A DNA stretch of 64,000 bases from a virus, in the IMG/VR virus record IMGVR_UViG_3300023174_003623, positions 1 through 64,000 of that record, one strand, 5' to 3'. Position numbers and translations under genes: made by a program. Below, piece after piece: positions 3,913 to 40,986 of this stretch; the first letter of the stretch is position 1, and each line of letters opens with the position of its first letter. The notes below the pieces were generated by a model that saw only the letters and a program-made list of their open reading frames with translations, did no database searches and was not told the origin of the DNA.

Positions 3913-4584
3913 ATGAATATAATGCAAATAAGTTTAAATAATGAAATCTATCAACCTTTAGCAGACATTACTGCTAATAATAAAATGTTATATTGTGAGA
4001 AACATGGGTATCGTTTTTTCAATAAAACTAGTGGATTTACTTATAACAATACCATAAGTGATTTGGGATTTGAAAAAATTAAGATAATATTAGATCTTTT
4101 TGAAAAAATGCCCGATTTAGATTGGATACATTGGACTGGTTGTGATACAATGGTGACGAACTTTAATATCAGACTAGAAGACATCATTGATGAAGAATAT
4201 CATATGATAGTTTGTGTTGATGGAAATGGTATCAACGCAGATAGTTTTTTAATTAAAAATAGTCGTGTAGGTCGAGGTTTAATGCAATGGATACTCGATA
4301 ATATCGACACTTATAGAAATCATTGTTGGCTTGAACAACAGGCTATGATAGACTTTTATTTCAAGAATCCTCTTGGTAAAGATATAATTAAAATATTACC
4401 TCAAAGGGTAATGAATAGTTATTTACATGATTTATATCCACACGCAAAAGGTAAATATAATGTAGATAAAACTGGAAATAATGCTGAATGGGCAAAGGGC
4501 GATTTTATTTTACATTTACCCGCATTACCTCTACAGACAAGAATTGATGTTATGAAAGAATATGTAAATAAGGTGACACTATGA
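3913..4584 (+). CDS. GT-A glycosyltransferase, GT34/MNN10-like
   Basis: YCEKHGY, DWIHWTGCD, GINADSFLIKN, WLEQQAM, RVMNSY and GDFILHLP motifs. Confidence 0.7.
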   Translation: MNIMQISLNNEIYQPLADITANNKMLYCEKHGYRFFNKTSGFTYNNTISDLGFEKIKIILDLFEKMPDLDWIHWTGCDTMVTNFNIRLEDIIDEEYHMIVCVDGNGINADSFLIKNSRVGRGLMQWILDNIDTYRNHCWLEQQAMIDFYFKNPLGKDIIKILPQRVMNSYLHDLYPHAKGKYNVDKTGNNAEWAKGDFILHLPALPLQTRIDVMKEYVNKVTL

Positions 4585-5885
4585 AAGATGTATATGATTT
4601 GGTAAATTCCTATAAGAAAGATAAAACTTGGATTGCAGGACAAGATTTTGTTCCTTATGCTGGTCCCTTTTTTGATGAAAAAGAACAAATTGCAGCCATT
4701 GAGTGCATTCTTGATGGATGGTTAGTTATGGGTAAGAAGTCAATGGCTTTTGAAAGAAATTTTCCTAAGCAATTTGAAAAGACGCATGGAATCTTGACTA
4801 ACTCTGGTTCTTCTTCTAATCTTCTTATGATGTCTGCGTTGACTAGTAAGACGTTTGGGTGGCCTAAAGGGACTAAGGTATTGATGCCTATTGCTGGATT
4901 TCCTACAACACTAAACCCTACATTACAGGTTGGGTTTGAACCTGTGTTTGTTGATATTGAAATTGATAGTTTGAATCTAGATATTGATAAGGTCGAGCAG
5001 GTATTGCTTAAAAATAAAGATATCAAGATTATTACGTTCGCCCATGTATTGGGTAATCCGCCAAACATGGATCGATTGATGGATTTAGTTCATCATTATC
5101 GTTTAATTTTACTTGAAGACTGTTGTGATGCTCTTGGAAGTACTTACAATGATAAGCCACTAGGATCTTTTGGTATGATGGCAAGTTGTTCTTTCTATCC
5201 TGCACACCATATGACGATGGGTGAGGGTGGATTTGTAGCCTGTTCAGATCCTGTAACTGAAGATGTGCTTAGAAGTTTCCGAGAATGGGGTCGTGGTTGT
5301 TATTGTGTTGGTCCAGAAGCTAATAAATTGAAGTGTGGTACCTGTAAGAAGCGGTTTTCTAACTGGGTTCCTTCAATGCCTAATGAAATTTTCGATCATA
5401 AGTTCATTTATAATGAAATTGGATACAATTTAAAGCCTATTGAATTACAGGCAGCAATGGGATTGGAACAAATTAAAAAATTACCTGAAATTCATGCGTT
5501 ACGTCGTCGAAATTATAGTCTTTTGATGAAAATTTATGAAAAATATGAAGAATTCTTTCATCTTCCAAGGGCTACAAAAGGTGCGAATCCAAGTTGGTTT
5601 GCTTTTCCGTTGACAATTCGTAAGGGTGCGCCATTTACTCGTACTCAGATCGTGGATTTTTTGGAAAATCACTTGATTCAGACTCGACCATACTTTGCGG
5701 GTAACATTATGCTACAGCCTGCGTATAGTCATTTGATGAATCAGGACGAAGCAAGAGATAATTTTCCTGTTGCAACTCATACAATGACTCATTCTTTTTT
5801 CCATGGCACCAGTCCTGTGATTACGGAAGAGCAAATTAAGTATATTGGTGAATGTGTAGATAAGTTTTTATCGCAATTTATTTAA
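4581..5885 (+). CDS. rfbH: CDP-4-keto-6-deoxyglucose 3-dehydrase (RfbH/DdhC E1-like, PMP and Fe-S dependent)
   Basis: DegT fold: NSGSSSNL, EDCCDALG, SFYPAHHMTMGEGG (His at the usual Lys position), WGRGCYC Cys cluster, GYNLK. Confidence 0.85.
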   Translation: MKDVYDLVNSYKKDKTWIAGQDFVPYAGPFFDEKEQIAAIECILDGWLVMGKKSMAFERNFPKQFEKTHGILTNSGSSSNLLMMSALTSKTFGWPKGTKVLMPIAGFPTTLNPTLQVGFEPVFVDIEIDSLNLDIDKVEQVLLKNKDIKIITFAHVLGNPPNMDRLMDLVHHYRLILLEDCCDALGSTYNDKPLGSFGMMASCSFYPAHHMTMGEGGFVACSDPVTEDVLRSFREWGRGCYCVGPEANKLKCGTCKKRFSNWVPSMPNEIFDHKFIYNEIGYNLKPIELQAAMGLEQIKKLPEIHALRRRNYSLLMKIYEKYEEFFHLPRATKGANPSWFAFPLTIRKGAPFTRTQIVDFLENHLIQTRPYFAGNIMLQPAYSHLMNQDEARDNFPVATHTMTHSFFHGTSPVITEEQIKYIGECVDKFLSQFI

Positions 5886-5897
5886 AGGTGATTGAAT

Positions 5898-6704
5898 ATG
5901 AATAATAAAGAATTCAAGTGTGTTGATATTCTTACCAATATGATCGAGAATTATGGTCTGATTGGTATCAAGACTTCTTTTGAGGATGAAGGTGCTCTTT
6001 TTAATGATACTATTCGTTTAAAAGAAATCTGTAATCAGGCGCAGACTAAACTTGTTCTGAAGATTGGTGGTCCAGAAGCCATTCGCGATATTAAAGATGC
6101 TTTGATTATCGGTGTCAAAGGTCTGGTTGCGCCTATGGTAGAGTCTGAGTTTGGTCTTAAAAAATTTATTCAATCTGCACATTCTCATATTCCATCTGAT
6201 GTTCTTTCTTCACTTCATCTTAATGTAAATTTAGAAACAATAACTGCCGCAGAACATGTAGAAGACATTCTGAGTATTCCTGAAGCTGAGTCTTTGTATG
6301 GGGTTACAGTAGGAAGAGTAGATCTAGTCTCTTCCATGAACAAAGATAGAACTTATGTAAATAGCGACGAAGTATATTCATTGGTGAAGACAGTGTTTGT
6401 AAAGGCGAAGAAGCGAGGACTTAAGTTATGTCTTGGTGGTGCAGTATCTGTAGAATCTTTGCCCTTTCTTAAACGATTGAATGAAGAGGGATTGTTGGAT
6501 AAGTTTGAGACACGATATGCTATTTACGATCCTGCAATTGCTCTAAAAAATTTACCAAAGGCTCTTGCTATGGGTCAGTCGTTTGAACTTGAATGGTTAC
6601 AGTGTAAGTATGAATATTATACTGCGCTAGCCAATCAAGACATAAATCGAATTCAAATGATAGAATCTCGTATGAATGAATCGAAGACGACAAAGACCAA
6701 ATGA
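5898..6704 (+). CDS. HpcH/HpaI aldolase/citrate-lyase-like protein
   Basis: KIGGPEA, VAPMVES, NLETIT and GRVDL motifs; sugar-cluster context. Confidence 0.7.
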   Translation: MNNKEFKCVDILTNMIENYGLIGIKTSFEDEGALFNDTIRLKEICNQAQTKLVLKIGGPEAIRDIKDALIIGVKGLVAPMVESEFGLKKFIQSAHSHIPSDVLSSLHLNVNLETITAAEHVEDILSIPEAESLYGVTVGRVDLVSSMNKDRTYVNSDEVYSLVKTVFVKAKKRGLKLCLGGAVSVESLPFLKRLNEEGLLDKFETRYAIYDPAIALKNLPKALAMGQSFELEWLQCKYEYYTALANQDINRIQMIESRMNESKTTKTK

Positions 6705-7087
6705 GTTATAATAAAAAGGTACTTGACGAAGAATCGCGAATTCTAGCTATAGATTTTGACGGAGTAATTCACACTAATCAATATGGATTTCATGACGGAA
6801 CAATCTATGGCACTCCAATTGCAGGTTCACTTGAATCTATTAAAGAACTAGCCAATTCATATGATTTAGTAATTTATACTGCAAAGGCGAAAAAAGATAG
6901 ACCGCTTGTTAATGGAAAGACGGGTACTGAGTTGGTATGGGAATGGCTCAAAAAATATAACATAGATATTTATATTAAGAATGTAACTGCTGAAAAACCA
7001 AGATGCATTTGCTATATAGATGATAAAGCTATTCGATTTGTTGACTGGCACCAAACTATGATCAATCTTAAACAAATTATAAAATAA
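6701..7087 (+). CDS. Small HAD-superfamily phosphatase
   Basis: AIDFDGVI motif I, YTA motif II, EKP and YIDDKA motif IV. Confidence 0.8.
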   Translation: MSYNKKVLDEESRILAIDFDGVIHTNQYGFHDGTIYGTPIAGSLESIKELANSYDLVIYTAKAKKDRPLVNGKTGTELVWEWLKKYNIDIYIKNVTAEKPRCICYIDDKAIRFVDWHQTMINLKQIIK

Positions 7088-7088
7088 A

Positions 7089-8840
7089 ATGAAAATATCT
7101 GACATTGTAATTCAATTCCTAGAATCAAAAGGAATTGAACATGTATTCGTCGTTTCTGGCGGTGGATGTATTCACCTAGTGGATTCTCTAGGTAAATCCA
7201 AACTCAATTATATCTGTATGCATCATGAGCAGGCAACTGCTATGGCAGCAGAGGGATATGCTCGTATTAAAAATGATGTCGCTGCATGTTTGGTTACCAC
7301 TGGTCCGGGTGGTACAAATGCACTGACGGGTGTTTTAGGTTGTTGGTTAGACAGCATTCCTACTATTTTTATTTCCGGTCAAGTATCATTGTCTCAGATA
7401 GCAAGAGGTACTGGTTGTCGTCAAATAGGTGACCAAGAATTTGATATTATCTCTACAGTAAAATCTATGACAAAATACTGTAAGATGATTGAGAATAAGA
7501 ATGAAATTCTTTATGAATTGAACAAGGCTTATGATATAGCTAAATCAGGGCGTCCCGGTCCTGTATGGTTAGATATTCCTTTAGATATTCAAGGTTCATT
7601 TGTCGAGGAACATGAGTTAATTCCTGTGCAGTCGTTTATAGAAGAACGATCTGTGATTCAAGAATCAGATATATTACAGTTTAAGATATTATTAGAAAAA
7701 TCTAAAAAGCCATTGATTATATGTGGCAATGGGATTCGTCTTTCAAATAGTGTAGACCTATTAAATTTTTTCATTAAATCCAATGAGATTCCTGCATTGA
7801 CTGGAGTTCATTCTGGTGTTGATTGTCTAGATAACACTTATGACTATTATGCCGGAAGGATCGGACTTCTAGGAAATTTATCATCAAATAAGATAGTTCA
7901 AGAAGCGGATTTGTTGATTGTGCTTGGCTCTAGATTAAATGTAAAGATGACTGGTTATGATCCAAGTTTGTTTGCGCCGAATGCTAAAAAGATTTTTGTA
8001 GATATTGACATGAATGAAATTCGTAAACATAAGTTGAATATTGACCTAAAAATTAATGCGGATTTAAATATATTTTTAAATACTATAATTAAGCAACAAT
8101 ACAAATTAGAATTTGAAGATTGGCGTGAATTTGTACGCACTGCTAGGTCTGAACAAAAATATGTATATCCTAAACATATCAATTTAAAGTCTCCTGCAAG
8201 TGTATATTACTTTCTATATCTTTTTCAGAATTATATGAAAGATCTGCCAATCATAACTAGCAATGGAACCGCACATGTAGCTACTCTTCAGACTATTCAA
8301 CTAAAAAATAAACAGAGAATGTTTACTAACGTTGGTTGCGCTAGTATGGGTTATGGATTACCTGCTGCAATTGGTGCATCTTTTGCGTTGAATAAATCAC
8401 CTGTTATCTGTATAGAGGGTGATGGTAGTTTACAGATGAACATACAAGAACTACAGACTCTTGTACACTATAAGCTTCCCGTGGTAATGATTGTGATTAA
8501 TAATGATGGCTATATCTCGATTAAGATAACTCAACAGAATTTCTTTAGTGGTTATGAAGTTGCAAGTGGAAAAGAAAGCGGAGTATCGTTTCCATCCTTA
8601 GAAAAGCTAAGTGATGCATATGGTATAGAGTATCACAAAATAACTCGTAACTCAGAAATTGATAATGTATTGTTCGATATATTTTCTTCTGATATTTCTG
8701 GTCCAATTATTTGTGAAGTGTTTACGCATCCAAATGAAAAGCACGAACCAAAGGTAATTCATAAAGGTATAGATAAAGATGGGAAAATTATTCCCGGTGA
8801 TTTAACTAATATGTTCATTTCAGAAACGTTTGATAATTAA
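7089..8840 (+). CDS. ThDP-dependent acetolactate-synthase-like enzyme (YerE-like)
   Basis: HHEQATAMAAEGYAR, TTGPGGTN, GRPGPVWLDIPLD, SMGYGLPAAIG and GDGS...NN ThDP motif. Confidence 0.85.
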   Translation: MKISDIVIQFLESKGIEHVFVVSGGGCIHLVDSLGKSKLNYICMHHEQATAMAAEGYARIKNDVAACLVTTGPGGTNALTGVLGCWLDSIPTIFISGQVSLSQIARGTGCRQIGDQEFDIISTVKSMTKYCKMIENKNEILYELNKAYDIAKSGRPGPVWLDIPLDIQGSFVEEHELIPVQSFIEERSVIQESDILQFKILLEKSKKPLIICGNGIRLSNSVDLLNFFIKSNEIPALTGVHSGVDCLDNTYDYYAGRIGLLGNLSSNKIVQEADLLIVLGSRLNVKMTGYDPSLFAPNAKKIFVDIDMNEIRKHKLNIDLKINADLNIFLNTIIKQQYKLEFEDWREFVRTARSEQKYVYPKHINLKSPASVYYFLYLFQNYMKDLPIITSNGTAHVATLQTIQLKNKQRMFTNVGCASMGYGLPAAIGASFALNKSPVICIEGDGSLQMNIQELQTLVHYKLPVVMIVINNDGYISIKITQQNFFSGYEVASGKESGVSFPSLEKLSDAYGIEYHKITRNSEIDNVLFDIFSSDISGPIICEVFTHPNEKHEPKVIHKGIDKDGKIIPGDLTNMFISETFDN

Positions 8841-8861
8841 TGATTCAGAAAAGGAAATATA

Positions 8862-9656
8862 ATGAAAATTGCAGTCATAGGATCTAATGGATTTGTTGGT
8901 AGAAATGTATTCAATTTTTTAAAATTAAAAAATCATAATGTACAAGGTCTAAATCGAAATAACATTGATTTATTAGATCCAAAACAAGTTAACTTTTGGT
9001 TAAAAAGCAATCGACCAAATATTATTATTAATTGTGCTGCTATTATGAAAGATAATAATAGTATAAATGATTGTAGAAATAATCTTGCAATTTTTATTAA
9101 TTTATTTAATAATGCACATTTATTTGATAAATTTATAGATACAGGTTCTGGTGCTGAATTTGATAGAACAACAAATATTGAAAATGCATCAATTGATAAA
9201 TTATTTGATTCGATTCCCTTAGACAGTTATGGATTTGGGCAAAACATCAAATCTCGTATGTGTCGCGAAAGAGAAAATTTTTATACATTAAGAATTTTTA
9301 ATTGTTTTGGTCGAGGTGAATTGAATACTAGAATTATTCCCAAATTTCTTACTTCTAAAAATACATTTAAAATTTTTGATGATAGATATTTTGACTATTT
9401 TGGTATACAAGATTTAAATGCAGTTGTTGAGCATTATGTAGACAATGATGTTTTTTTTAAAGATATAAACACAGTTTATATGAAAAAAGTTAAAATATCA
9501 GAAATGTTAAAACTGTATTGTGAAATACATAATATTTCGGTTAATAATTTTGAAATAGAATCTGTATCTAATTTAAATTATACTGGAGATGGTACTTTAT
9601 TAAATAATTTAGGTTTAAAATTATTAGGCCTTGAAGAGTGTTTAAAGAGATATTAA
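8862..9656 (+). CDS. NAD(P)-dependent epimerase/reductase (extended SDR)
   Basis: GSNGFVG Rossmann motif, INCAA, GSGAEF, RIFNCFG. Confidence 0.75.
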   Translation: MKIAVIGSNGFVGRNVFNFLKLKNHNVQGLNRNNIDLLDPKQVNFWLKSNRPNIIINCAAIMKDNNSINDCRNNLAIFINLFNNAHLFDKFIDTGSGAEFDRTTNIENASIDKLFDSIPLDSYGFGQNIKSRMCRERENFYTLRIFNCFGRGELNTRIIPKFLTSKNTFKIFDDRYFDYFGIQDLNAVVEHYVDNDVFFKDINTVYMKKVKISEMLKLYCEIHNISVNNFEIESVSNLNYTGDGTLLNNLGLKLLGLEECLKRY

Positions 9657-9657
9657 A

Positions 9658-10452
9658 ATGTATACAATTAATAAATGTTTAGCGTGTGGATCTAAAAATA
9701 TTGTAATTAAATCTACAAAACTAGCTAGGTTTGTTGCTTGGAAAACATCGAATACCCCTATGTCTGAGGATATAGATATTGAAGGTTTACAATGCAACGA
9801 TTGTTCATATGTTGGTTCTAATCATAGATTTACCATTCAAGAAGAACATAACTTGTACAATCAATACAGAGGGCCAGAATATAATTCTATTCGTTATGAA
9901 TGTGAACCAAATTATATTAAAATAGATAAATTTATTAAAACTAATGAATATTTTTTAATAAGAAAGACTGGAATTGATATATTGGTTGAAAAAAATATTG
10001 ACACCAATGATATTAAATCATTATTAGATTATGGTGGTGAAGCAGGCTCTATGATACCATCTATCTTAAATAAAGCAAAAAAATACGTTTTCGATATTAG
10101 TGATGTACCGGTTCAATCTAATGTTATTAAATTAAAACAAATAGATCTCAATAATACATTTGATTTTGTTATGTGTTGTCATGTATTAGAACATGTATCA
10201 GATTTAGATACATTTATTAGCAATTTTAAAAAAGTTATTAATAAAAATACATGGATATATTTTGAAGTGCCTAACTACCCAAATCCATTTATTGGGAAAT
10301 TTCACGAACATATTAATTTTTTTAATAAAAAATCATTTACTTCGTTTTTAGTAAGAAATGAGTTTTGTATAAAAGATACATATGAATATAACATTGATGT
10401 TGATATGCATCATTTTAATAATTTGTGTATGATGGTAAAATTAAATGAATAA
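9658..10452 (+). CDS. Class I SAM-dependent methyltransferase with N-terminal CxxC..CxxC
   Basis: LLDYGGEAG, FDFVMCCHVLEHV, FEVP, EHINFF. Confidence 0.8.
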   Translation: MYTINKCLACGSKNIVIKSTKLARFVAWKTSNTPMSEDIDIEGLQCNDCSYVGSNHRFTIQEEHNLYNQYRGPEYNSIRYECEPNYIKIDKFIKTNEYFLIRKTGIDILVEKNIDTNDIKSLLDYGGEAGSMIPSILNKAKKYVFDISDVPVQSNVIKLKQIDLNNTFDFVMCCHVLEHVSDLDTFISNFKKVINKNTWIYFEVPNYPNPFIGKFHEHINFFNKKSFTSFLVRNEFCIKDTYEYNIDVDMHHFNNLCMMVKLNE

Positions 10453-11401
10453 AATATTAATAATTGGCGGTGCTGGATATGTAGGATCTCCTTTATCTAT
10501 TGAATTAGATAAAAGAGGACATGATGTTTCCATAGTAGATTTACTTTGGTTTGGTAATAATTTACCAAATCATTTAAAAAATAAAGTGCAAAAAATTGAT
10601 GCATTAGATTTAACAGTTAATGATTTAAAAATATTTGACACTATAATTTTTGTTGCAGGTTTATCTAATGATCCTATGGCAGATTATTCTCCTTCTAAAA
10701 ATTTTGTTGCTAATTCAGCAACACCAGCATATCTTGCTTATATTGCAAAAAAAGCTGGTGTTAAAAGAATGATTTATGCAAGTAGTTGTTCTGTGTATGG
10801 TTATACAGTAGATAAATGTTTTGATGAGACTGGTCCTACCAACTCAATATATCCTTATGGAATATCTAAGTTGCAAGGTGAGAATGCAGTTATGCAATTA
10901 GTCGATGATTCCTTTTCTGTCATCTCCCTTAGAAAAGGAACTGTATCTGGCGTTAGTTCTAGGATGAGATTTGATTTAGTAGTAAATGCAATGTTTAAAA
11001 CAGCTTTAACATCTAGTACTATATTTGTAAATGATCCTTCCGTATGGAGACCTATTTTAGCACTTAAAGATTGCATTTCTGCATATATATGTGCGGTAGA
11101 ATCTGATATTAAAGTTTCTGGAATTTTTAATATTGCTTCGGATAATTACACTGTAAATCAAATAGCAAACATTGTTAAAGATACTATAGAAACCGAAAAA
11201 AATATTAAGGTGAATATTATTAATAATAATATTAAAGACGTTAGAAATTATAAAGTTGATTGTAATAAAGCTAAACAAATTTTAGCATTTTCCCCCTTGA
11301 ATAATGTTGAATTAATTGTAAAAGATCTTTTATCATATAATGATTTTGGAGATATGGAAAATTCATTGTTTTATAACATTAAAACGTTTTCTAATTTATA
11401 A
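10445..11401 (+). CDS. NDP-sugar epimerase/dehydratase (extended SDR)
   Basis: GGAGYVG, ASSCSVYG and YGISK (YxxxK). Confidence 0.85.
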   Translation: MNKILIIGGAGYVGSPLSIELDKRGHDVSIVDLLWFGNNLPNHLKNKVQKIDALDLTVNDLKIFDTIIFVAGLSNDPMADYSPSKNFVANSATPAYLAYIAKKAGVKRMIYASSCSVYGYTVDKCFDETGPTNSIYPYGISKLQGENAVMQLVDDSFSVISLRKGTVSGVSSRMRFDLVVNAMFKTALTSSTIFVNDPSVWRPILALKDCISAYICAVESDIKVSGIFNIASDNYTVNQIANIVKDTIETEKNIKVNIINNNIKDVRNYKVDCNKAKQILAFSPLNNVELIVKDLLSYNDFGDMENSLFYNIKTFSNL

Positions 11402-11417
11402 TAAATAAAGAAAAATC

Positions 11418-11446
11418 TTTACATTGATAATGTAATTAGTTATAAT
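11418..11446 (+). promoter_or_regulatory. sigma70-type promoter
   Basis: TTTACA-17-TATAAT just upstream of ORF 11462. Confidence 0.6.
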
Positions 11447-11461
11447 AATGAGAATGTTAAA

Positions 11462-11812
11462 ATGATTAATATAAAAGTTGATGAAGCATATGCTTTTGAC
11501 ATGCTTAGTGTTCTAGATATAAAAAAGAAAAATTCTCCAAAAGATCAGTGTAATTTTGATACAATGTCTTGTGATATTGAAATTCAGATTGGATCTAAAT
11601 TGTTCAAACAAATTTTGAATTCAAATGTATATTCTCAAATGATTACGGTAAATCAAATCATTTATGATTTGATTGACGCGATAAGAAAAGGTAACTTACA
11701 TCTCGATGCTAGAGTTATTGATGATGCTAATACTGACCGTTTTAAAATAAAACAAAAATTACAAAGCGAATTCTTTCTTAATGAATTGGTTGAGAATAAA
11801 ATACAAAATTAA
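11462..11812 (+). CDS. Hypothetical helical protein within the sugar island
   Basis: 116-aa ORF with SD; D.LSVLDIK...N..R..IK pattern resembles small proteins of glyco-clusters. Confidence 0.6.
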   Translation: MINIKVDEAYAFDMLSVLDIKKKNSPKDQCNFDTMSCDIEIQIGSKLFKQILNSNVYSQMITVNQIIYDLIDAIRKGNLHLDARVIDDANTDRFKIKQKLQSEFFLNELVENKIQN

Positions 11813-11827
11813 ATATAGAAGGAAATT

Positions 11828-12862
11828 ATGAAAAAGGCGATAATTACTGGTGTTACAGGGCAAGATGGTTCATATTTAGCTGAATTTTTAATTGAAAAGG
11901 GTTATGAAGTTCATGGCACTATTCGTAGAACTAGTGACCGTGATCATAAAAATTTAACCAAAATTAAAAATCAAATAATTTTTCATCAAACTGATTTAAC
12001 AGATTATAATTCAATATCTCGCTGTATTGAAAACATTTCCCCAGATGAAATTTATAACTTAGCGGCTCAAAGTCATGTTAAATTAAGTTTTGACTTACCT
12101 CTTAACACATCTGATGTTAATGCTTTAGGGCCACTTAGAATACTTGAAGCTATACGCAATCTTAAACCGAATACACGTTTTTATCAGGCTAGTACTTCTG
12201 AACTATATGGTGTAGTTGACCATGCACCTCAAAATGAAAATACAGTATTTAAACCAGCTAGCCCATATGGTATAGCTAAACTATTTGCTCATTGGTCAGT
12301 AGTAAACTATCGTTTTGGTTATAATATATTTGCGTGTAATGGTATACTTTTCAATCATGAAAGTCCTCGGCGTGGAGATATATTTGTAACAAAAAAAATT
12401 ACAAAAGCATTTGCAAAAATATTTTTAGATATAAATGCTGGATATGACCATACACCGGTTCAATTGGGTAATTTAGATAGCATGAGAGATTGGGGACATG
12501 CTAAAGATTATGTAGAAGCTATGTGGTTAATGATGCAAAAAGATACGCCAGATGATTATGTAATTAGCACTCAAATTCAATATTCGATTAGAGACTTTTG
12601 CAAAATGGCAGCTGAGTATTTTAATATGGATCTTGAATGGGAAGGCAAAGGAAAACAAGAACAGGCAATAGATCGTAAGACAGGAAAAATTATTGTAACG
12701 GTAAATCCTGAATTTTATAGACCGGTTGATGTAGTAAATTTGCTTGGTAATTCTTCGAAGGCGCGGAATATATTAAATTGGAAACCTAAATACGATTTGA
12801 ATAAGATGGTAGAAGAAATGTGTAAATATGATTTAGATGAAGAGGTAAAAAAATATGCTTAA
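11828..12862 (+). CDS. gmd: GDP-mannose 4,6-dehydratase
   Basis: ITGVTGQDGSYLAE, YNLAAQSHV, YQASTSELYG, NHESPRRG, RDWGHAKDYV. Confidence 0.95.
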   Translation: MKKAIITGVTGQDGSYLAEFLIEKGYEVHGTIRRTSDRDHKNLTKIKNQIIFHQTDLTDYNSISRCIENISPDEIYNLAAQSHVKLSFDLPLNTSDVNALGPLRILEAIRNLKPNTRFYQASTSELYGVVDHAPQNENTVFKPASPYGIAKLFAHWSVVNYRFGYNIFACNGILFNHESPRRGDIFVTKKITKAFAKIFLDINAGYDHTPVQLGNLDSMRDWGHAKDYVEAMWLMMQKDTPDDYVISTQIQYSIRDFCKMAAEYFNMDLEWEGKGKQEQAIDRKTGKIIVTVNPEFYRPVDVVNLLGNSSKARNILNWKPKYDLNKMVEEMCKYDLDEEVKKYA

Positions 12863-14015
12863 TTGGCCTTTAATGCAAAACGCGATCAAGTTTACTGATC
12901 GACTAAAGTTATGTAAGTTTCTTTTAACGTCTGATCGTTATACAAATGGACCTAAAGTTCGTGAATTTGAAAAGATGTGGTCGGATTGGATTGAAACTAA
13001 ACATTCACTAATGGTCAGTTCAGGTTCTACGGCAAATTTTTTATTACTAGCTGCTATCAAAGAAAAACATGGATTGAAAGAAGGAGATAAAGTACTAGTA
13101 CCAGCTTGCACTTGGGTAACTAATGTTAGTCCTATTATTCAACTTGGATTAATTCCAATCTTTTGTGATGTTAATTTTGAAAATTTTAGTTTTAATATTC
13201 CTGAACTTGAAAAAATTAAAATCAAGCATGATATTAAAGCTATCTTTATTACTCATCTTCTAGGTTTTAGCGCAGATAATGAAAAATATAAGGAAATATT
13301 TCCAAATGCTATTATCTTAGAAGATGTATGCGAAAGTCATGGTTGTCGGAGTGATAGTGGAGAACTCCGTGGACGAGATAATGGAACATTTAGTTTTTAT
13401 TTCGGTCATCACATGACTACAATTGAAGGTGGTATGGTTACCACAAATGATGACGATCTATATGAACTTATGCGTATGAAGAGGAGTCATGGTTTAGCGC
13501 GTGAATCTGGAAACTTATCTAAGTATACTTCTAAATATCCAGATATTCATCCACAGTTTTTATTTGCTACAGATGGATATAATTTTAGAAGCACTGAAAT
13601 TAATGCTATTCTAGGTATGCAACAACTACCAAGATTAAATGGATTTATTGACACTAGAAAGAAAAATTTTAGTATATTTGTAGATCTATTAGATGAGTAT
13701 AAAGATTTATTTTATCCTCTTGTAGATCAAAAAGGTAATAGTAATTATGCTTTTCCATTTATTTGTAAAAATCCAAACATTAAACATAAACTAATGCAAT
13801 TATTTGATGCAAATAAAATAGAAAATCGTCCTATTGTTAGTGGAAATCTATTAAAGCAACCTTTCTTAAAAGGCTATGATTTTGCAATTAAATCTAAATC
13901 TTATAATGCTGATGTGTTAAATGATAACGGATTATATATTGGGAATAGTCAATTTGTAAATCCAAATCAAATTTATAAATTGTTTGAATTAATAGCCAAA
14001 GAATTTAAAAAATAA
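12855..14015 (+). CDS. DegT-family PLP enzyme, ColD-like GDP-4-keto-6-deoxymannose 3-dehydratase
   Basis: SSGSTAN, EDVCESHG, SFYFGHHMTTIEGG (His replaces the Lys), no Fe-S Cys cluster; overlaps gmd. Confidence 0.75.
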   Translation: MLNWPLMQNAIKFTDRLKLCKFLLTSDRYTNGPKVREFEKMWSDWIETKHSLMVSSGSTANFLLLAAIKEKHGLKEGDKVLVPACTWVTNVSPIIQLGLIPIFCDVNFENFSFNIPELEKIKIKHDIKAIFITHLLGFSADNEKYKEIFPNAIILEDVCESHGCRSDSGELRGRDNGTFSFYFGHHMTTIEGGMVTTNDDDLYELMRMKRSHGLARESGNLSKYTSKYPDIHPQFLFATDGYNFRSTEINAILGMQQLPRLNGFIDTRKKNFSIFVDLLDEYKDLFYPLVDQKGNSNYAFPFICKNPNIKHKLMQLFDANKIENRPIVSGNLLKQPFLKGYDFAIKSKSYNADVLNDNGLYIGNSQFVNPNQIYKLFELIAKEFKK

Positions 14016-14025
14016 AGGATATATT

Positions 14026-14706
14026 ATGTTATTTGCATACAGAAATTTTAAAAGAAATAAAATGGTAAATCTTTCTGCTACTAGCATTAAGCATTTTGTT
14101 CCAGACGCTAAAATTTATTGTGTTACATTTTATGAAAATAGCCCAGATGAGTATGATGATCAAGAGCCTCTTTTACCATTTATAGAGGAGCGAAAAGTCA
14201 AAACCAAGTATCCCAATACAAATGGTAAACCTCATGATCATCCTGATGTGCATGCTACAAGTGGACAAGGGAGTCCTGATACTTCTAAATATTTTGCAGA
14301 AGGTTATAATGAAATTTGGAAATGGCTTCGCGATACACAAGAAAAAGTTTTAATGCTAGGTGAAGATGAATTCTATACTACAGGCGAAGTATTAAAAGAT
14401 TTTATAGATAATCAAGATAAATATTGGGCAGCATTTGGTTCTTGGTGTTGGTGGGGATATGAAGAAAAATGGGCAAATGGTACCTGTATATGTTTTGACC
14501 TAAAAACTTTAGATGGTTTATTTCCGTTAGACGAAAATGGGCCAGCATTTGTTGAAGGATTACTTTATCATACATTATGTCGTATCCCTAGAGAACATAG
14601 ATATATAATTGAAAAAAGAACTTTTGAGAATTATCATGGAGATGGGATGAGAACAAATTCTTCCGCTAAAATGGAAGAAGAACTTATAAAAGCCGGTATA
14701 ATTTAA
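14026..14706 (+). CDS. Hypothetical protein, possible GT-A-like glycosyltransferase
   Basis: SIKHFVPDA and GYN.....VLMLGEDEF (DxD-like) pattern; last gene of the sugar island. Confidence 0.45.
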   Translation: MLFAYRNFKRNKMVNLSATSIKHFVPDAKIYCVTFYENSPDEYDDQEPLLPFIEERKVKTKYPNTNGKPHDHPDVHATSGQGSPDTSKYFAEGYNEIWKWLRDTQEKVLMLGEDEFYTTGEVLKDFIDNQDKYWAAFGSWCWWGYEEKWANGTCICFDLKTLDGLFPLDENGPAFVEGLLYHTLCRIPREHRYIIEKRTFENYHGDGMRTNSSAKMEEELIKAGII

Positions 14707-14722
14707 TCAAAGGAGACATTAT

Positions 14723-14794
14723 ATGTGGACTACACCAACATTTGAAGACTTCCGTTTGGGATTTGAAATTTCACTTTACATCAACAATCGATAA
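14723..14794 (+). CDS. pqqA: Pyrroloquinoline quinone precursor peptide PqqA (23 aa)
   Basis: MWTTPTFEDFRLGFEISLYINNR*, with W..P....R.GFE-x3-Y (ExxxY) signature and SD AGGAGA at 14711-14716. Below the ORF-track size cutoff. Confidence 0.92.
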   Translation: MWTTPTFEDFRLGFEISLYINNR

Positions 14795-14816
14795 GTATAT
14801 AATAAATTAAAACAAC

Positions 14817-14859
14817 ACCCACGACGCCTCTCTATAGAAGCGCACCAGCGTGGGTTTTT
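14817..14859 (+). terminator. Bulged GC-rich hairpin plus U-tract after pqqA
   Basis: ACCCACG(14817-23)/CGTGGGT(14849-55) outer stem, inner CGCCTCT-CTAT-AGAAGCG, then TTTTT. Confidence 0.6.
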
Positions 14860-14929
14860 AATCTTATGGAACAACCGAAGCTTACTGAAGACAATTTGAT
14901 AAACTGTCATACAAATTTGGAATAAATAA

Positions 14930-15252
14930 TATTGTTGGTATGGTCGTATGAAGTAAAGGGAAGGTATTCTGGACGCGGGTGCGAATCCCGCCACCTCCAC
15001 CAAAAGCATATTGTAAATATGATGCTGTCGAAGCACACTGGTTCAGCAATCAATAAATGTTTCGTGAGTATACTTTTGATGGGGGTGACTAGATTCGACA
15101 GGGTAAGATACTGATACAGACGACTCGGTAGGCGATGACCGTAAATCAAGCAAAAAATATAAAAGCCAATGATGACTTTTACGGAGATTATGCACTAGCT
15201 GCATAATTCTTCTGGGGTTTCGCTAGCTGTCCTTATTACCCAATCAGCTAGC
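14930..15252 (+). ncRNA. ssrA: Circularly permuted (two-piece) tmRNA gene; tag (A)NDDFYGDYALAA at 15165-15206
   Basis: Acceptor-piece 3' end GACGCGGGTGCGAATCCCGCCACCTCCACCA ends at 15002, before the coding-piece 5' end GGGGGTGA...TTCGAC at 15081. G3.U70 pair present; tag ends in LAA*. Outer ends approximate. Confidence 0.9.
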
Positions 15253-15288
15253 ACTTTACACACAACATTCAAAGTTACAAATAAATTT

Positions 15289-15720
15289 ATGGAACCTCAC
15301 CTGAGAAAACGAAATCTAAAGATTTTAAGTTTTCTTTCTAAAGCAGCGGAAGCAGCAGACCATGTAGGCATTCGTGCTAAACTGGCTGCTGCTATTGTCA
15401 TTAGAAATGAAGTAATTGCAATAGGATTTAATCGACGTAAAACCCATCCATTTCAAGTCCAGTTTCAAACAAATGATAAACAAATATATCTTCATGCAGA
15501 GACTGATGCTATTAATAGAGCTTTAAAATATCTATCCAAAGATGAATTAAAAAAAGCAACTCTTTATGTTGCTAGGGTAAAATATTTGGATAATAAAAAT
15601 AAAAAAGCAGTATGGGCTGAAAGTAAACCTTGTATTGGATGTCAGAAAGCAATATTATCTTATGGAATTTCCAGTGTAATTCATACATGTAATGATGGTG
15701 AATATAATATTATTAGATAA
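15289..15720 (+). CDS. Zn-dependent cytidine/dCMP deaminase family protein
   Basis: GFN, LHAE and KPCIGC motifs. Confidence 0.85.
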   Translation: MEPHLRKRNLKILSFLSKAAEAADHVGIRAKLAAAIVIRNEVIAIGFNRRKTHPFQVQFQTNDKQIYLHAETDAINRALKYLSKDELKKATLYVARVKYLDNKNKKAVWAESKPCIGCQKAILSYGISSVIHTCNDGEYNIIR

Positions 15721-15750
15721 ATAGAATTACATCTTTAAAGAGTAAACCCG

Positions 15751-16581
15751 ATGTTATCTTTCTTTAATTTTCTTTTAGAAGAATTAGATTTAACTGATAA
15801 TGATAAAAATAAATCAGATGCTATTGGAAAAGTTCATGAATTTCTTGTTCATAGAAATTTAGGTGGAAAGGCTACTCCACAAGAAAGATTAGCTCATAAA
15901 AAACATATACAATTTATAGGTAAACAACGTTATAATGCCGCTGTAATAAGAGCACAACATGCGTCAGATCATATTGAAAAACATCTTATAGGAAGAAAGA
16001 ATGTTGCTCGTGTGGAGAGAGTTTCTGGTACAGGTAACCCACAAGATCCATCAGATTTGCATATACACTTTGCTAATGGTAAAAAGATTGGTATTAGTTT
16101 AAAAACTACAGAAGGCGATTCTAAAGCAGTAAAACTTTCTAATCCCGGTCTTACTGCTGCGAATAGCATTCATGGAGAAAAAATTGAAAGAGGAGCCGAT
16201 ACTCAACAATATATGTGGGATATTGCACATAGAATTAATACAGGATTTAATGATGCTTCTCCAGAAGAAAAACATGACTATTTAAAAAAACATGTTTTTA
16301 GAGTACCAGACACCCATGAAGTAAATGGTGTACATACTATAAATCAAAATAAAATGCCAGCTACTGCACATTTTAGATATCATGAACATTTTACACCTTT
16401 AATTAAAGATACCGAAAATATTACAACAAAAAGAACTGGGTACACTGTTAATTTTTTTCATCCTTCATCAAAAACACCTGTTGTAACATTAAGAATAAAA
16501 CGTAAAGATGCTAGTCCAAGATCCTCAATTAAGGCTTTAGTTACTACCAATATTATTCCAAAATCTAATTATAAAAGATAA
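15751..16581 (+). CDS. Putative PD-(D/E)XK endonuclease-like protein with internal-protein-like leader
   Basis: G..HE early helix, PSDL.I.......IGISLK motif; MLSFFNFLLEE leader. Confidence 0.5.
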   Translation: MLSFFNFLLEELDLTDNDKNKSDAIGKVHEFLVHRNLGGKATPQERLAHKKHIQFIGKQRYNAAVIRAQHASDHIEKHLIGRKNVARVERVSGTGNPQDPSDLHIHFANGKKIGISLKTTEGDSKAVKLSNPGLTAANSIHGEKIERGADTQQYMWDIAHRINTGFNDASPEEKHDYLKKHVFRVPDTHEVNGVHTINQNKMPATAHFRYHEHFTPLIKDTENITTKRTGYTVNFFHPSSKTPVVTLRIKRKDASPRSSIKALVTTNIIPKSNYKR

Positions 16582-16624
16582 ATGATATGGCAAACAATAT
16601 AAAGGTCAAGGAAGATAATAACTA

Positions 16625-17968
16625 ATGGCACAATATAATTCGGCGAACGGTTCTCTCCAAACTCACAATCATACTTTATTTGAAGTCAATATGCTGGCTA
16701 CATCTGATGGTCAGCAAGTCTCGAACTACAATCCCTATCCTGTAAGACTTGGAGCATCTCAATCCGATGCTTTTGGAAGACTGAGAACTTCTGAACCATT
16801 TACTTTAGGTGATTATAAACACCTTTATGGAATAGATCCTAATTTCGTAGATAGTATTACTAACGGTGGAAGCATTCAATATTTGCATAATCAAGCATGT
16901 GCAAGATTAAGCACTACAAGTAATCCTTCTTCTTCTATAGTTCATCAGACTAAATTTTATCATCATTATATGCCGGGCAAAAGTCAATTAATTAAATCTA
17001 CATTTAATTTTTATGCTGCTACTACAAACGTTACAAAAAGAACAGGTTACTTTGATGATAATAATGGAATATATTTTGAACAAGCCGGAAATGGAACGTT
17101 AAGTTTTTGTATTAGATCTGATGTAAGTGGATCTATAAGTGATGATAGAAAAGTATCTCAAGCTAATTGGAACATTGATAAGTGTAATGGCACCGGTTCT
17201 TCTAAATTTAATTTAGATATAACTAAAACACAGATTTTTTTTACTGATTTTCAATGGCTTGGAGTTGGTAGAGTTCGTTGTGGATTTGTTCATAATGGTG
17301 ATATAATTATTGCTCATGAATTTTATACCAGCAATTTTTATGACACCGTTTACATGAGTAATCCAAATTTGCCAGTTCGTTGTGAAATACGAAATACTGG
17401 AGCGACTACCGGGGCTTATATGGATCAAATATGCTCTACTGTACTCTCAGAAGGAGGATATGTAGAATCTGGTCAAGATTGGGCAGTCTCATCCCCATCA
17501 CTTAGAACGCTTGCTTCTGGCGCTAGTCTACCAATCTTAGCAATAAGACTTAAGAATACGTTTAATACATATCCTAATCGAATAATTGCTCGTGCTGAGA
17601 ACATAAAATTAATAAGCACAGGTGAAAATATTAAACATCGATTAATTAAACTACCGAACGTTTCTGCGTTAACGGGTGGTAGTTGGACTGATGTTAAAAC
17701 AGGATCTAGTGCAGTTGAATATAATGCTACTGCAACTGCTTGGTCAGGTGGTGATGAAATAGACAATGGATTTGTAGTAGCAGGCACACAGGGTTCTCAG
17801 CATTCAGGTGGCGCTCCTAGTGCTAATATGCCTTCAACTGCAAAGAAGAATTACATAGTTCAAAATTTTGATAGTAATGATAGCGAAATTTATATAGTAG
17901 CAGTAACAAATATTGGTTCTGCCTCTACTAATGTTGGTGTCGGATTACAGTGGAGAGAAATTTACTAA
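16625..17968 (+). CDS. Conserved T4-like phage protein, probably a beta-rich virion protein
   Basis: 447 aa; DAFGRLRTSEP, Y.PGKS, QWLGVGRVR and NLPVRCE motifs. Confidence 0.6.
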   Translation: MAQYNSANGSLQTHNHTLFEVNMLATSDGQQVSNYNPYPVRLGASQSDAFGRLRTSEPFTLGDYKHLYGIDPNFVDSITNGGSIQYLHNQACARLSTTSNPSSSIVHQTKFYHHYMPGKSQLIKSTFNFYAATTNVTKRTGYFDDNNGIYFEQAGNGTLSFCIRSDVSGSISDDRKVSQANWNIDKCNGTGSSKFNLDITKTQIFFTDFQWLGVGRVRCGFVHNGDIIIAHEFYTSNFYDTVYMSNPNLPVRCEIRNTGATTGAYMDQICSTVLSEGGYVESGQDWAVSSPSLRTLASGASLPILAIRLKNTFNTYPNRIIARAENIKLISTGENIKHRLIKLPNVSALTGGSWTDVKTGSSAVEYNATATAWSGGDEIDNGFVVAGTQGSQHSGGAPSANMPSTAKKNYIVQNFDSNDSEIYIVAVTNIGSASTNVGVGLQWREIY

Positions 17969-32201: not shown

Positions 32202-32275
32202 CTGCGCGTAGCTCAGCTGGATAGAGCATTCGGCTTCTACCCGAATGGTCGGGGGTTCGAATCCCTCCGCGCAGG
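32202..32275 (+). tRNA. tRNA-Arg(TCT), CCA not encoded
   Basis: CTGCGCG/CGCGCAG acceptor stem; anticodon arm TTCGG-CTTCTAC-CCGAA; GTTCGAA. Confidence 0.9.
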
Positions 32276-32324
32276 CAATTAATAATAATATTCCTGATTG
32301 ATAGCAAAAAGCAAGAAAATAAAT

Positions 32325-32409
32325 GCGAATGTGGCGGAACGGTTTACGCACAAGACTTAAAATCTTGCGGGATTATCCCATATGGGTTCGAATCCCATCA
32401 TTCGTACCA
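32325..32409 (+). tRNA. tRNA-Leu(TAA)
   Basis: CAAGA-CTTAAAA-TCTTG, long variable arm, CCA. Confidence 0.92.
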
Positions 32410-32417
32410 AATACAAC

Positions 32418-32493
32418 GCCCCCGTAGCTCAGCGGTTAGAGCAGACGGCTTATATCCGTCCGGTCGGTGGTTCAATTCCATCCGGGGGTACCA
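32418..32493 (+). tRNA. tRNA-Ile(TAT)
   Basis: GACGG-CTTATAT-CCGTC anticodon arm; discriminator A plus CCA. Confidence 0.88.
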
Positions 32494-32503
32494 AATAAAA
32501 TAT

Positions 32504-32596
32504 GGGTGAGTTGATGCTATGGTGTGTGCATCTCCAGACTGTAAATCTGGTCCCTCTGGGTAAACATTGTCAGTTCGACTCTGACCTCACCCACCA
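32504..32596 (+). tRNA. tRNA-Tyr(GTA)
   Basis: GGGTGAG/CTCACCC, CCAGA-CTGTAAA-TCTGG, long variable arm, CCA. Confidence 0.88.
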
Positions 32597-32604
32597 TATA
32601 AAAT

Positions 32605-32678
32605 GCGGGATTGGTATAGGGGCTGTGCCTTAGCCTTCCAAGCTAAAGAGACCGGTTCAAATCCGGTATCCCGCTCCA
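32605..32678 (+). tRNA. tRNA-Gly(TCC)
   Basis: GCGGGAT/ATCCCGC, TTAGC-CTTCCAA-GCTAA, U73 plus CCA. Confidence 0.9.
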
Positions 32679-32682
32679 TTTC

Positions 32683-32757
32683 GGGATTGTGGTGAAATGG
32701 TATCACAACGGACTTTTAATCCGTAAATTTTGGGTTCAAGTCCCAACGATCCCACCA
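32683..32757 (+). tRNA. tRNA-Lys(TTT)
   Basis: ACGGA-CTTTTAA-TCCGT, CCA. Confidence 0.9.
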
Positions 32758-40910: not shown

Positions 40911-40986
40911 GCTGACGTAGCTCAGTTGGTAGAGCTACTGATTTGTAATCAGTGGGTCGGGAGTTCGATTCTCTCCGTCAGCACCA
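40911..40986 (+). tRNA. tRNA-Thr(TGT)
   Basis: GCTGACG/CGTCAGC, ACTGA-TTTGTAA-TCAGT, CCA. Confidence 0.93.

Follow-up and report, generated by a model that had tools for sequence, protein, structure and literature searches.

The cofactor PQQ is built from a short peptide, PqqA, which is bound by PqqD and whose Glu is cross-linked to its Tyr by the radical-SAM enzyme PqqE, after which the synthesis is completed by proteases, PqqB and PqqC; each PQQ uses up one PqqA peptide. A comparable logic is known from cyanophages carrying psbA (D1 protein), where the phage brings a fast-turnover component while the other parts of the host system persist during infection, a role that was shown experimentally. 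Phage pqqA resembles psbA as a functional analogy only, in that both would be the consumable part of a host energy system, while protein and pathway are unrelated and the role of pqqA is a proposed one.

Viral pqqA itself is of a kind already known, published and common in phages. PqqA was described in Lake Baikal T4-like phages (VP_266) with predicted Methylophilaceae hosts, and the authors proposed that the viral peptide boosts methanol oxidation (Coutinho et al. 2020, Microbiome 8:163, PMC7678222), while a 2026 reservoir study (PMC13188868) placed viral pqqA among phosphate-solubilising helper genes. Phage pqqA is not mentioned in the papers on Melnitz, Venkman and MEP401/402. The initial annotation of the locus analyzed here was therefore correct in assigning viral pqqA to metagenomes (PMC7678222), and by the same token it overrated the novelty of the gene. 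The locus lies in a 64,000-nt stretch of viral DNA (hereafter the window) and resembles Baikal VP_266 in that its PqqA stands alone, belongs to an uncultured T4-like phage with ~35% G+C, and is read as a PQQ-supply helper. It differs in two respects, as a methanol dehydrogenase gene accompanies pqqA in the Baikal phages and is absent from the record containing the window, and as the window peptide is not of the Methylophilaceae type.

Stand-alone pqqA genes in other phages

A tblastn search of the window peptide against GenBank phages gave 12 records, nine of which belong to phages isolated on Methylophilaceae (Melnitz with four records, Venkman, MEP301, MEP401, MEP402, and P19250A), the remaining ones being one Manatee Spring podovirus and two records labelled 'Acinetobacter phage'. 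The matches in 'Acinetobacter phage MD-2021a' were rejected as a phage gene, since they fall in a bacterial pqqABCDE operon accompanied by ppk; the 144-kb record concerned (CAKLQF020000010.1, Table 1) looks like bacterial chromosome and not like phage DNA. All phage PqqAs extracted from the GenBank records passed TIGR02107 (34–41 bits), and the window gene shares with those of the cultured Methylophilaceae phages the 23–24-codon orphan form, an own ribosome site and a passing TIGR02107 score. Inspection of Melnitz EXVC044M, Venkman, MEP301, MEP402, and P19250A showed pqqA to be unannotated in each. Melnitz, like the Manatee Spring podovirus, has a hypothetical ORF called over it on the opposite strand, and Venkman, MEP301, MEP402 and P19250A have no ORF called there. 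Three of the phage peptides (P19250A, Venkman and the Manatee Spring podovirus) match PqqA of Methylophilaceae at every residue (100% identity), which is expected because the peptide must fit the host enzymes; the window peptide, unlike these host-family peptides, reaches at most 74% identity to bacterial PqqA among the matches listed.

A pattern scan of IMG/VR recovered at least 120 contigs with pqqA, and 119 ORFs were extracted from them, every one of which is a clean ORF of 23–25 codons with an ATG start and a comparable purine-rich ribosome site at the same place. None of the 120 viral loci listed (1.0 Mb of flanks) had pqqB-E near pqqA, whereas the same test found them at 37 of 120 bacterial loci. 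The other 83 bacterial loci were also without pqqB-E within ~8 kb; linkage to pqqBCDE is typical of the operon copy, not of orphan copies, and is not strictly defining for PqqA. Stand-alone pqqA thus recurs in many phage lineages.

Table 1 Coordinates of the features of the pqqA region (window positions unless another record is named)
Feature	Position	Strand	Remarks
Sugar-nucleotide run	4581-14706	+	Two DegT-type aminotransferases, three epimerase/dehydratase genes, family-less 226-aa protein
Sugar-nucleotide gene block	11462-14700		71–72% nucleotide identity with relatives
Stop codon of 226-aa gene	14704-14706		5' of pqqA
Mobile mini-cassette, ~115 nt	14698-14811	+	Leader, SD, pqqA, ~17 nt trailer; blastn to relatives (L132 10198-10313, also L255)
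Shine-Dalgarno AAGGAG	14710-14715	+	7 nt before pqqA ATG; read from sequence
pqqA, 23 codons + TAA (72 nt)	14723-14794	+	PF08042 and TIGR02107; cross-link residues Glu15, Tyr19
Sigma-70-like TTTACA-17-TATAAT	14775-14803	+	11/12; over last pqqA codons, faces hairpin and tmRNA
Terminator-like hairpin	14817-14859	+	7-bp G+C-rich outer stem, inner stem, then five T (14855-14859)
Circularly permuted two-piece tmRNA	14903-15258	+	Rfam tmRNA_permuted 146 bits, beta_tmRNA 116 bits
Six-tRNA cluster	32202-32757	+	Arg-TCT, Leu-TAA, Ile-TAT, Tyr, Gly-TCC, Lys-TTT
tRNA-Thr	40911-40986	+	Stands apart
Melnitz pqqA	MZ577097.1 2995-3069		11 nt before tRNA-Leu
IMG/VR contig L067	2898-3344		pqqA directly 3' of permuted tmRNA
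IMG/VR contig L099	2811-3270		pqqA directly 3' of permuted tmRNA
'Acinetobacter phage MD-2021a'	CAKLQF020000010.1 696-6066		ppk and complete pqqABCDE

The pqqA gene and the phage genome around it

The window covers the initial 64 kb of an IMG/VR record of 154,777 bp (estimated completeness 81%, 35.5% G+C), which comes from a T4-like myovirus with baseplate wedge gp6/gp7-like and tail proteins, primase, ribonucleotide reductase (RNR), dCMP deaminase and a virion protein. Both flanks of pqqA are viral, as sugar genes of phage type precede it and genes for virion and baseplate proteins, primase and RNR follow, and it does not lie at a host junction. The same phage is also present in sequencing run SRR7812574. 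The gp6 protein shares only ~40% identity with its closest counterparts in cultured phages (Sinorhizobium phiM12 group, Caulobacter Cr30) and 33% with that of Pelagibacter HTVC008M, so that the phage is not Melnitz-like, and megablast of positions 13000–17000 against GenBank phages gave no match. The genome also carries a tRNA cluster and a separate tRNA-Thr gene (Table 1).

The ORF ending at 14794, which had been proposed as PqqA without having been called as a gene, was recovered with exactly the translation written in the initial annotation, MWTTPTFEDFRLGFEISLYINNR, as was the strong Shine-Dalgarno sequence in front of its ATG. The stop codon of the preceding 226-aa gene is so close that the gap leaves no space for a promoter of pqqA's own. 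In the PqqA HMM search that had been suggested as a check, the peptide scored above the curated cut-offs of both models (PF08042: 33.2 bits, E = 5e−8, profile positions 1–19 of 19, cut-off 21.1 bits; TIGR02107: 34.4 bits, E = 1.4e−8, profile positions 1–21 of 21, cut-off 20 bits). When all 154.8 kb of the record were searched in six frames, it was the sole PqqA match (E = 3.4e−8), and no second copy was found in the record by a loose motif search. The E-x-x-x-Y pair, i.e., the residues that become PQQ, reads Glu15-Ile-Ser-Leu-Tyr19 in the translation, and by both profile models the peptide keeps the Glu, the Tyr and every family-conserved position. These results confirm a PqqA-family peptide gene inside a genuine phage genome.

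Scans with degenerate patterns located this type of peptide in two IMG/VR contigs (3300006875_000114 and 3300025848_000115) and in the metagenome contig Ga0208784_1000017, where PqqA differs from that of the window by one added codon and by Thr in place of Ser17. Between the window pqqA and that of relative L132, 14 of the 69 coding bases differ with a single residue change (Ser/Thr), corresponding to a pS of 0.78 (saturated) and a pN of 0.055; 11 of ~14 synonymous sites differ between the window gene and its relatives, and the remaining five frames are broken or unconserved between them. Judged by this substitution signature, pqqA is a translated gene under purifying selection. A chance ORF, or a piece of the leader belonging to the precursor of the neighbouring tmRNA, might be suspected from its position 108 nt upstream of the permuted tmRNA and from the sigma-70-like site that overlaps its 3' end, but HMM E-values of ~1e−8, the substitution pattern of a coding sequence, and relatives that have the ORF apart from the tmRNA or the tmRNA without the ORF make this reading extremely improbable, the more so as sigma-70-like sites are no more frequent in this region than in shuffled sequence.

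The initial annotation had reported the window to be free of pqqB-E, and this extends to the whole record, as pqqB, pqqC, pqqD and pqqE were found neither in the window nor in the rest of the 154.8 kb; with ~81% of the genome in the record, the remainder could harbour further pqq genes. The record likewise yielded no PQQ-dependent alcohol dehydrogenase and no AmoC/PmoC, so that pqqA here lacks the pmoC partner described in methanotroph phages. A contig without cognate pqq genes could also be expected if the peptide were processed to a non-PQQ product by a different host or phage enzyme. We consider this very unlikely, because the sequence matches the equivalog-level PqqA model (TIGR02107) and because no radical-SAM or other RiPP enzyme was detected in the record; the PqqE model, which matches radical-SAM proteins in 14 of 14 control genomes, is silent here, which argues against a phage-borne radical-SAM maturase.

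Local anatomy and movement of pqqA

In the window, pqqA sits between the 226-aa gene and the permuted tmRNA. The sugar-nucleotide run upstream is probably a glycan or DNA-modification module, and the G+C content falls to 27% at 8–12 kb of the window. Downstream, the hairpin seen in the initial annotation was retrieved as a stem at 14817–14855 with five T; the RNA fold of positions 14795–14875 (81 nt) has −17.2 kcal/mol and z = −2.4, with 3 of 200 shuffles folding as well. It is absent from the list of a consensus terminator scan, its loop being too long for the rule of that scan. The tag of the tmRNA was predicted by ARAGORN as ANDDFYGDYALAA, and the homologous tmRNA of the relative L129 carries a different tag. 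Two-piece tmRNAs occur in marine phages according to the Melnitz paper. The Melnitz pqqA precedes a tRNA gene by 11 nt and the window pqqA precedes the tmRNA by 108 nt, while in two IMG/VR contigs the gene lies directly on the other side of a permuted tmRNA (Table 1). Among the 119 viral pqqA ORFs, five are located at most 300 nt from a tRNA or tmRNA gene, versus 2.4 ± 1.2 expected at random positions, a weak tendency towards stable-RNA regions.

By blastn, a unit of ~115 nt comprising pqqA and its ribosome site is homologous between the window and relatives L132 and L255 (75% identity) and falls outside the conserved 3.2-kb block, and it does not include the hairpin. Its position differs: in the relatives pqqA is found ~1.4 kb upstream of the sugar-nucleotide block, in the window just downstream of it, and in L129 the 226-aa gene is immediately followed by the tmRNA, pqqA being absent there. 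A homologous unit of this size at different positions indicates that pqqA moved as a mini-cassette. No further copies of the cassette or of the hairpin were found in the genome, and neither is a member of a repeat family here. Such shuffling in close relatives, among accessory sugar genes and genes for stable RNAs, is also what a small host-derived moron passed among T4-like phages with no benefit to them would look like. We regard this neutral explanation as unlikely, given that purifying selection is strong across silent-site saturation and that the gene was independently acquired or kept by myo-, sipho- and podoviruses.

Peptide type, likely host, and proposed role

The window peptide shares with bacterial PqqAs the length, the W-x-x-P leader, R-x-G-F-E, Glu-x-x-x-Tyr and the C-terminal Y-I-N-N-R that is typical of Gammaproteobacteria, and differs from them in being phage-borne, in its residues Ser17 and Phe10, and in a lower score (34 bits vs. 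41–47 bits in five bacterial genomes checked). Position 17 is Thr in the relatives and in the bacterial peptides (best 60 of 126 inspected). Among the matches listed, the closest bacterial PqqA has 17 of 23 residues in common (74%; uncultured gammaproteobacterium), followed by one with 16 of 23 (Arenicellales), and the 126 bacterial peptides with a Y-I-N-N tail are almost all from Gammaproteobacteria. The pattern E-D-[FL]-R-[LF]-G-F-E-[IV]-[ST]-x-Y-I-N-N had no match among the genomes of 185,579 species, the exact peptide is not in a collection of 15 billion proteins, and a metagenome scan for the peptide type returned the phage relatives together with one bacterial contig of 51% G+C that has a different N-terminus. 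Identity to the type found in Methylophilaceae phages is 43–48%.

As far as its sequence can tell, the peptide is therefore of the gammaproteobacterial and not of the Methylophilaceae type, which points to a gammaproteobacterial PQQ user rather than to Methylophilaceae as the host. The methylotroph host envisaged in the initial annotation is not borne out by a peptide that is 48% identical to the Methylophilaceae type and up to 74% identical to uncultured gammaproteobacterial PqqAs. We would give the gammaproteobacterial PQQ user about an even chance of being the host and Methylophilaceae a clearly smaller one, with other hosts sharing what remains. Further PqqA types occur in several T4-like IMG/VR contigs of moderate relatedness, which fits a peptide matched to each host.

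The divergence of the peptide bears on its function as well. No close bacterial PqqA (at most 17 of 23 residues among the matches listed) and a Ser for the usual Thr between the cross-linked residues both count against precursor supply, and could instead be expected of a decoy or inhibitor that binds host PqqD/PqqE unproductively and shuts off PQQ synthesis, e.g., sparing SAM or reductant. We think such a blockade quite improbable, however, as the Glu, the Tyr and all family-conserved positions are retained, close relatives carry the usual Thr, and phages with known hosts have a peptide identical to the host's own substrate, which fits supply and not blockade. None of the decoy, neutral-passenger, other-maturase or non-gene readings has positive support.

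In our assessment the window probably holds a functional phage copy of pqqA that supplies the consumable precursor to the PQQ enzymes of the host. The supply of a stoichiometric precursor, as first put forward in the initial annotation, is the role best supported for a peptide of this family whose intact gene stands alone, with none of the remaining pqq genes detected, in a genuine phage genome of the lytic type. The phage would make the 23-residue peptide during infection, host PqqD would bind it, PqqE would cross-link Glu15 to Tyr19, and host proteases, PqqB and PqqC would complete the cofactor from it, presumably to the benefit of the phage. Since one peptide is destroyed per PQQ, it is the sole part of the pathway that needs constant renewal, whereas the enzymes last; by shutting off the expression of host genes but bringing this part along, a T4-like phage could thus keep PQQ-dependent periplasmic dehydrogenases supplied by means of a 72-nt gene alone. 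This scenario assumes a need for new PQQ within one latent period, and PQQ is not consumed in catalysis.

What the window pqqA adds is a divergent PqqA variant and the movement of the gene as a ~115-nt cassette, while knowledge of the mechanism is unchanged by it. More generally, as gene callers drop ORFs this short, a common phage gene that would aid the oxidation of one-carbon compounds and of alcohols or sugars is missing from the annotations of isolates, and with no pqqA family in PHROGs it is absent there too. Phage pqqA may extend beyond the phages of Methylophilaceae, with a lineage (at least four contigs) that keeps a gammaproteobacterial-type variant without a close counterpart among the bacterial matches listed; we tentatively suggest that this implies an unsequenced, possibly non-methylotrophic PQQ-dependent host, and a peptide tuned to the PqqD/PqqE of that host. 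If so, the PqqA peptide type would be usable as a host marker for such phages.
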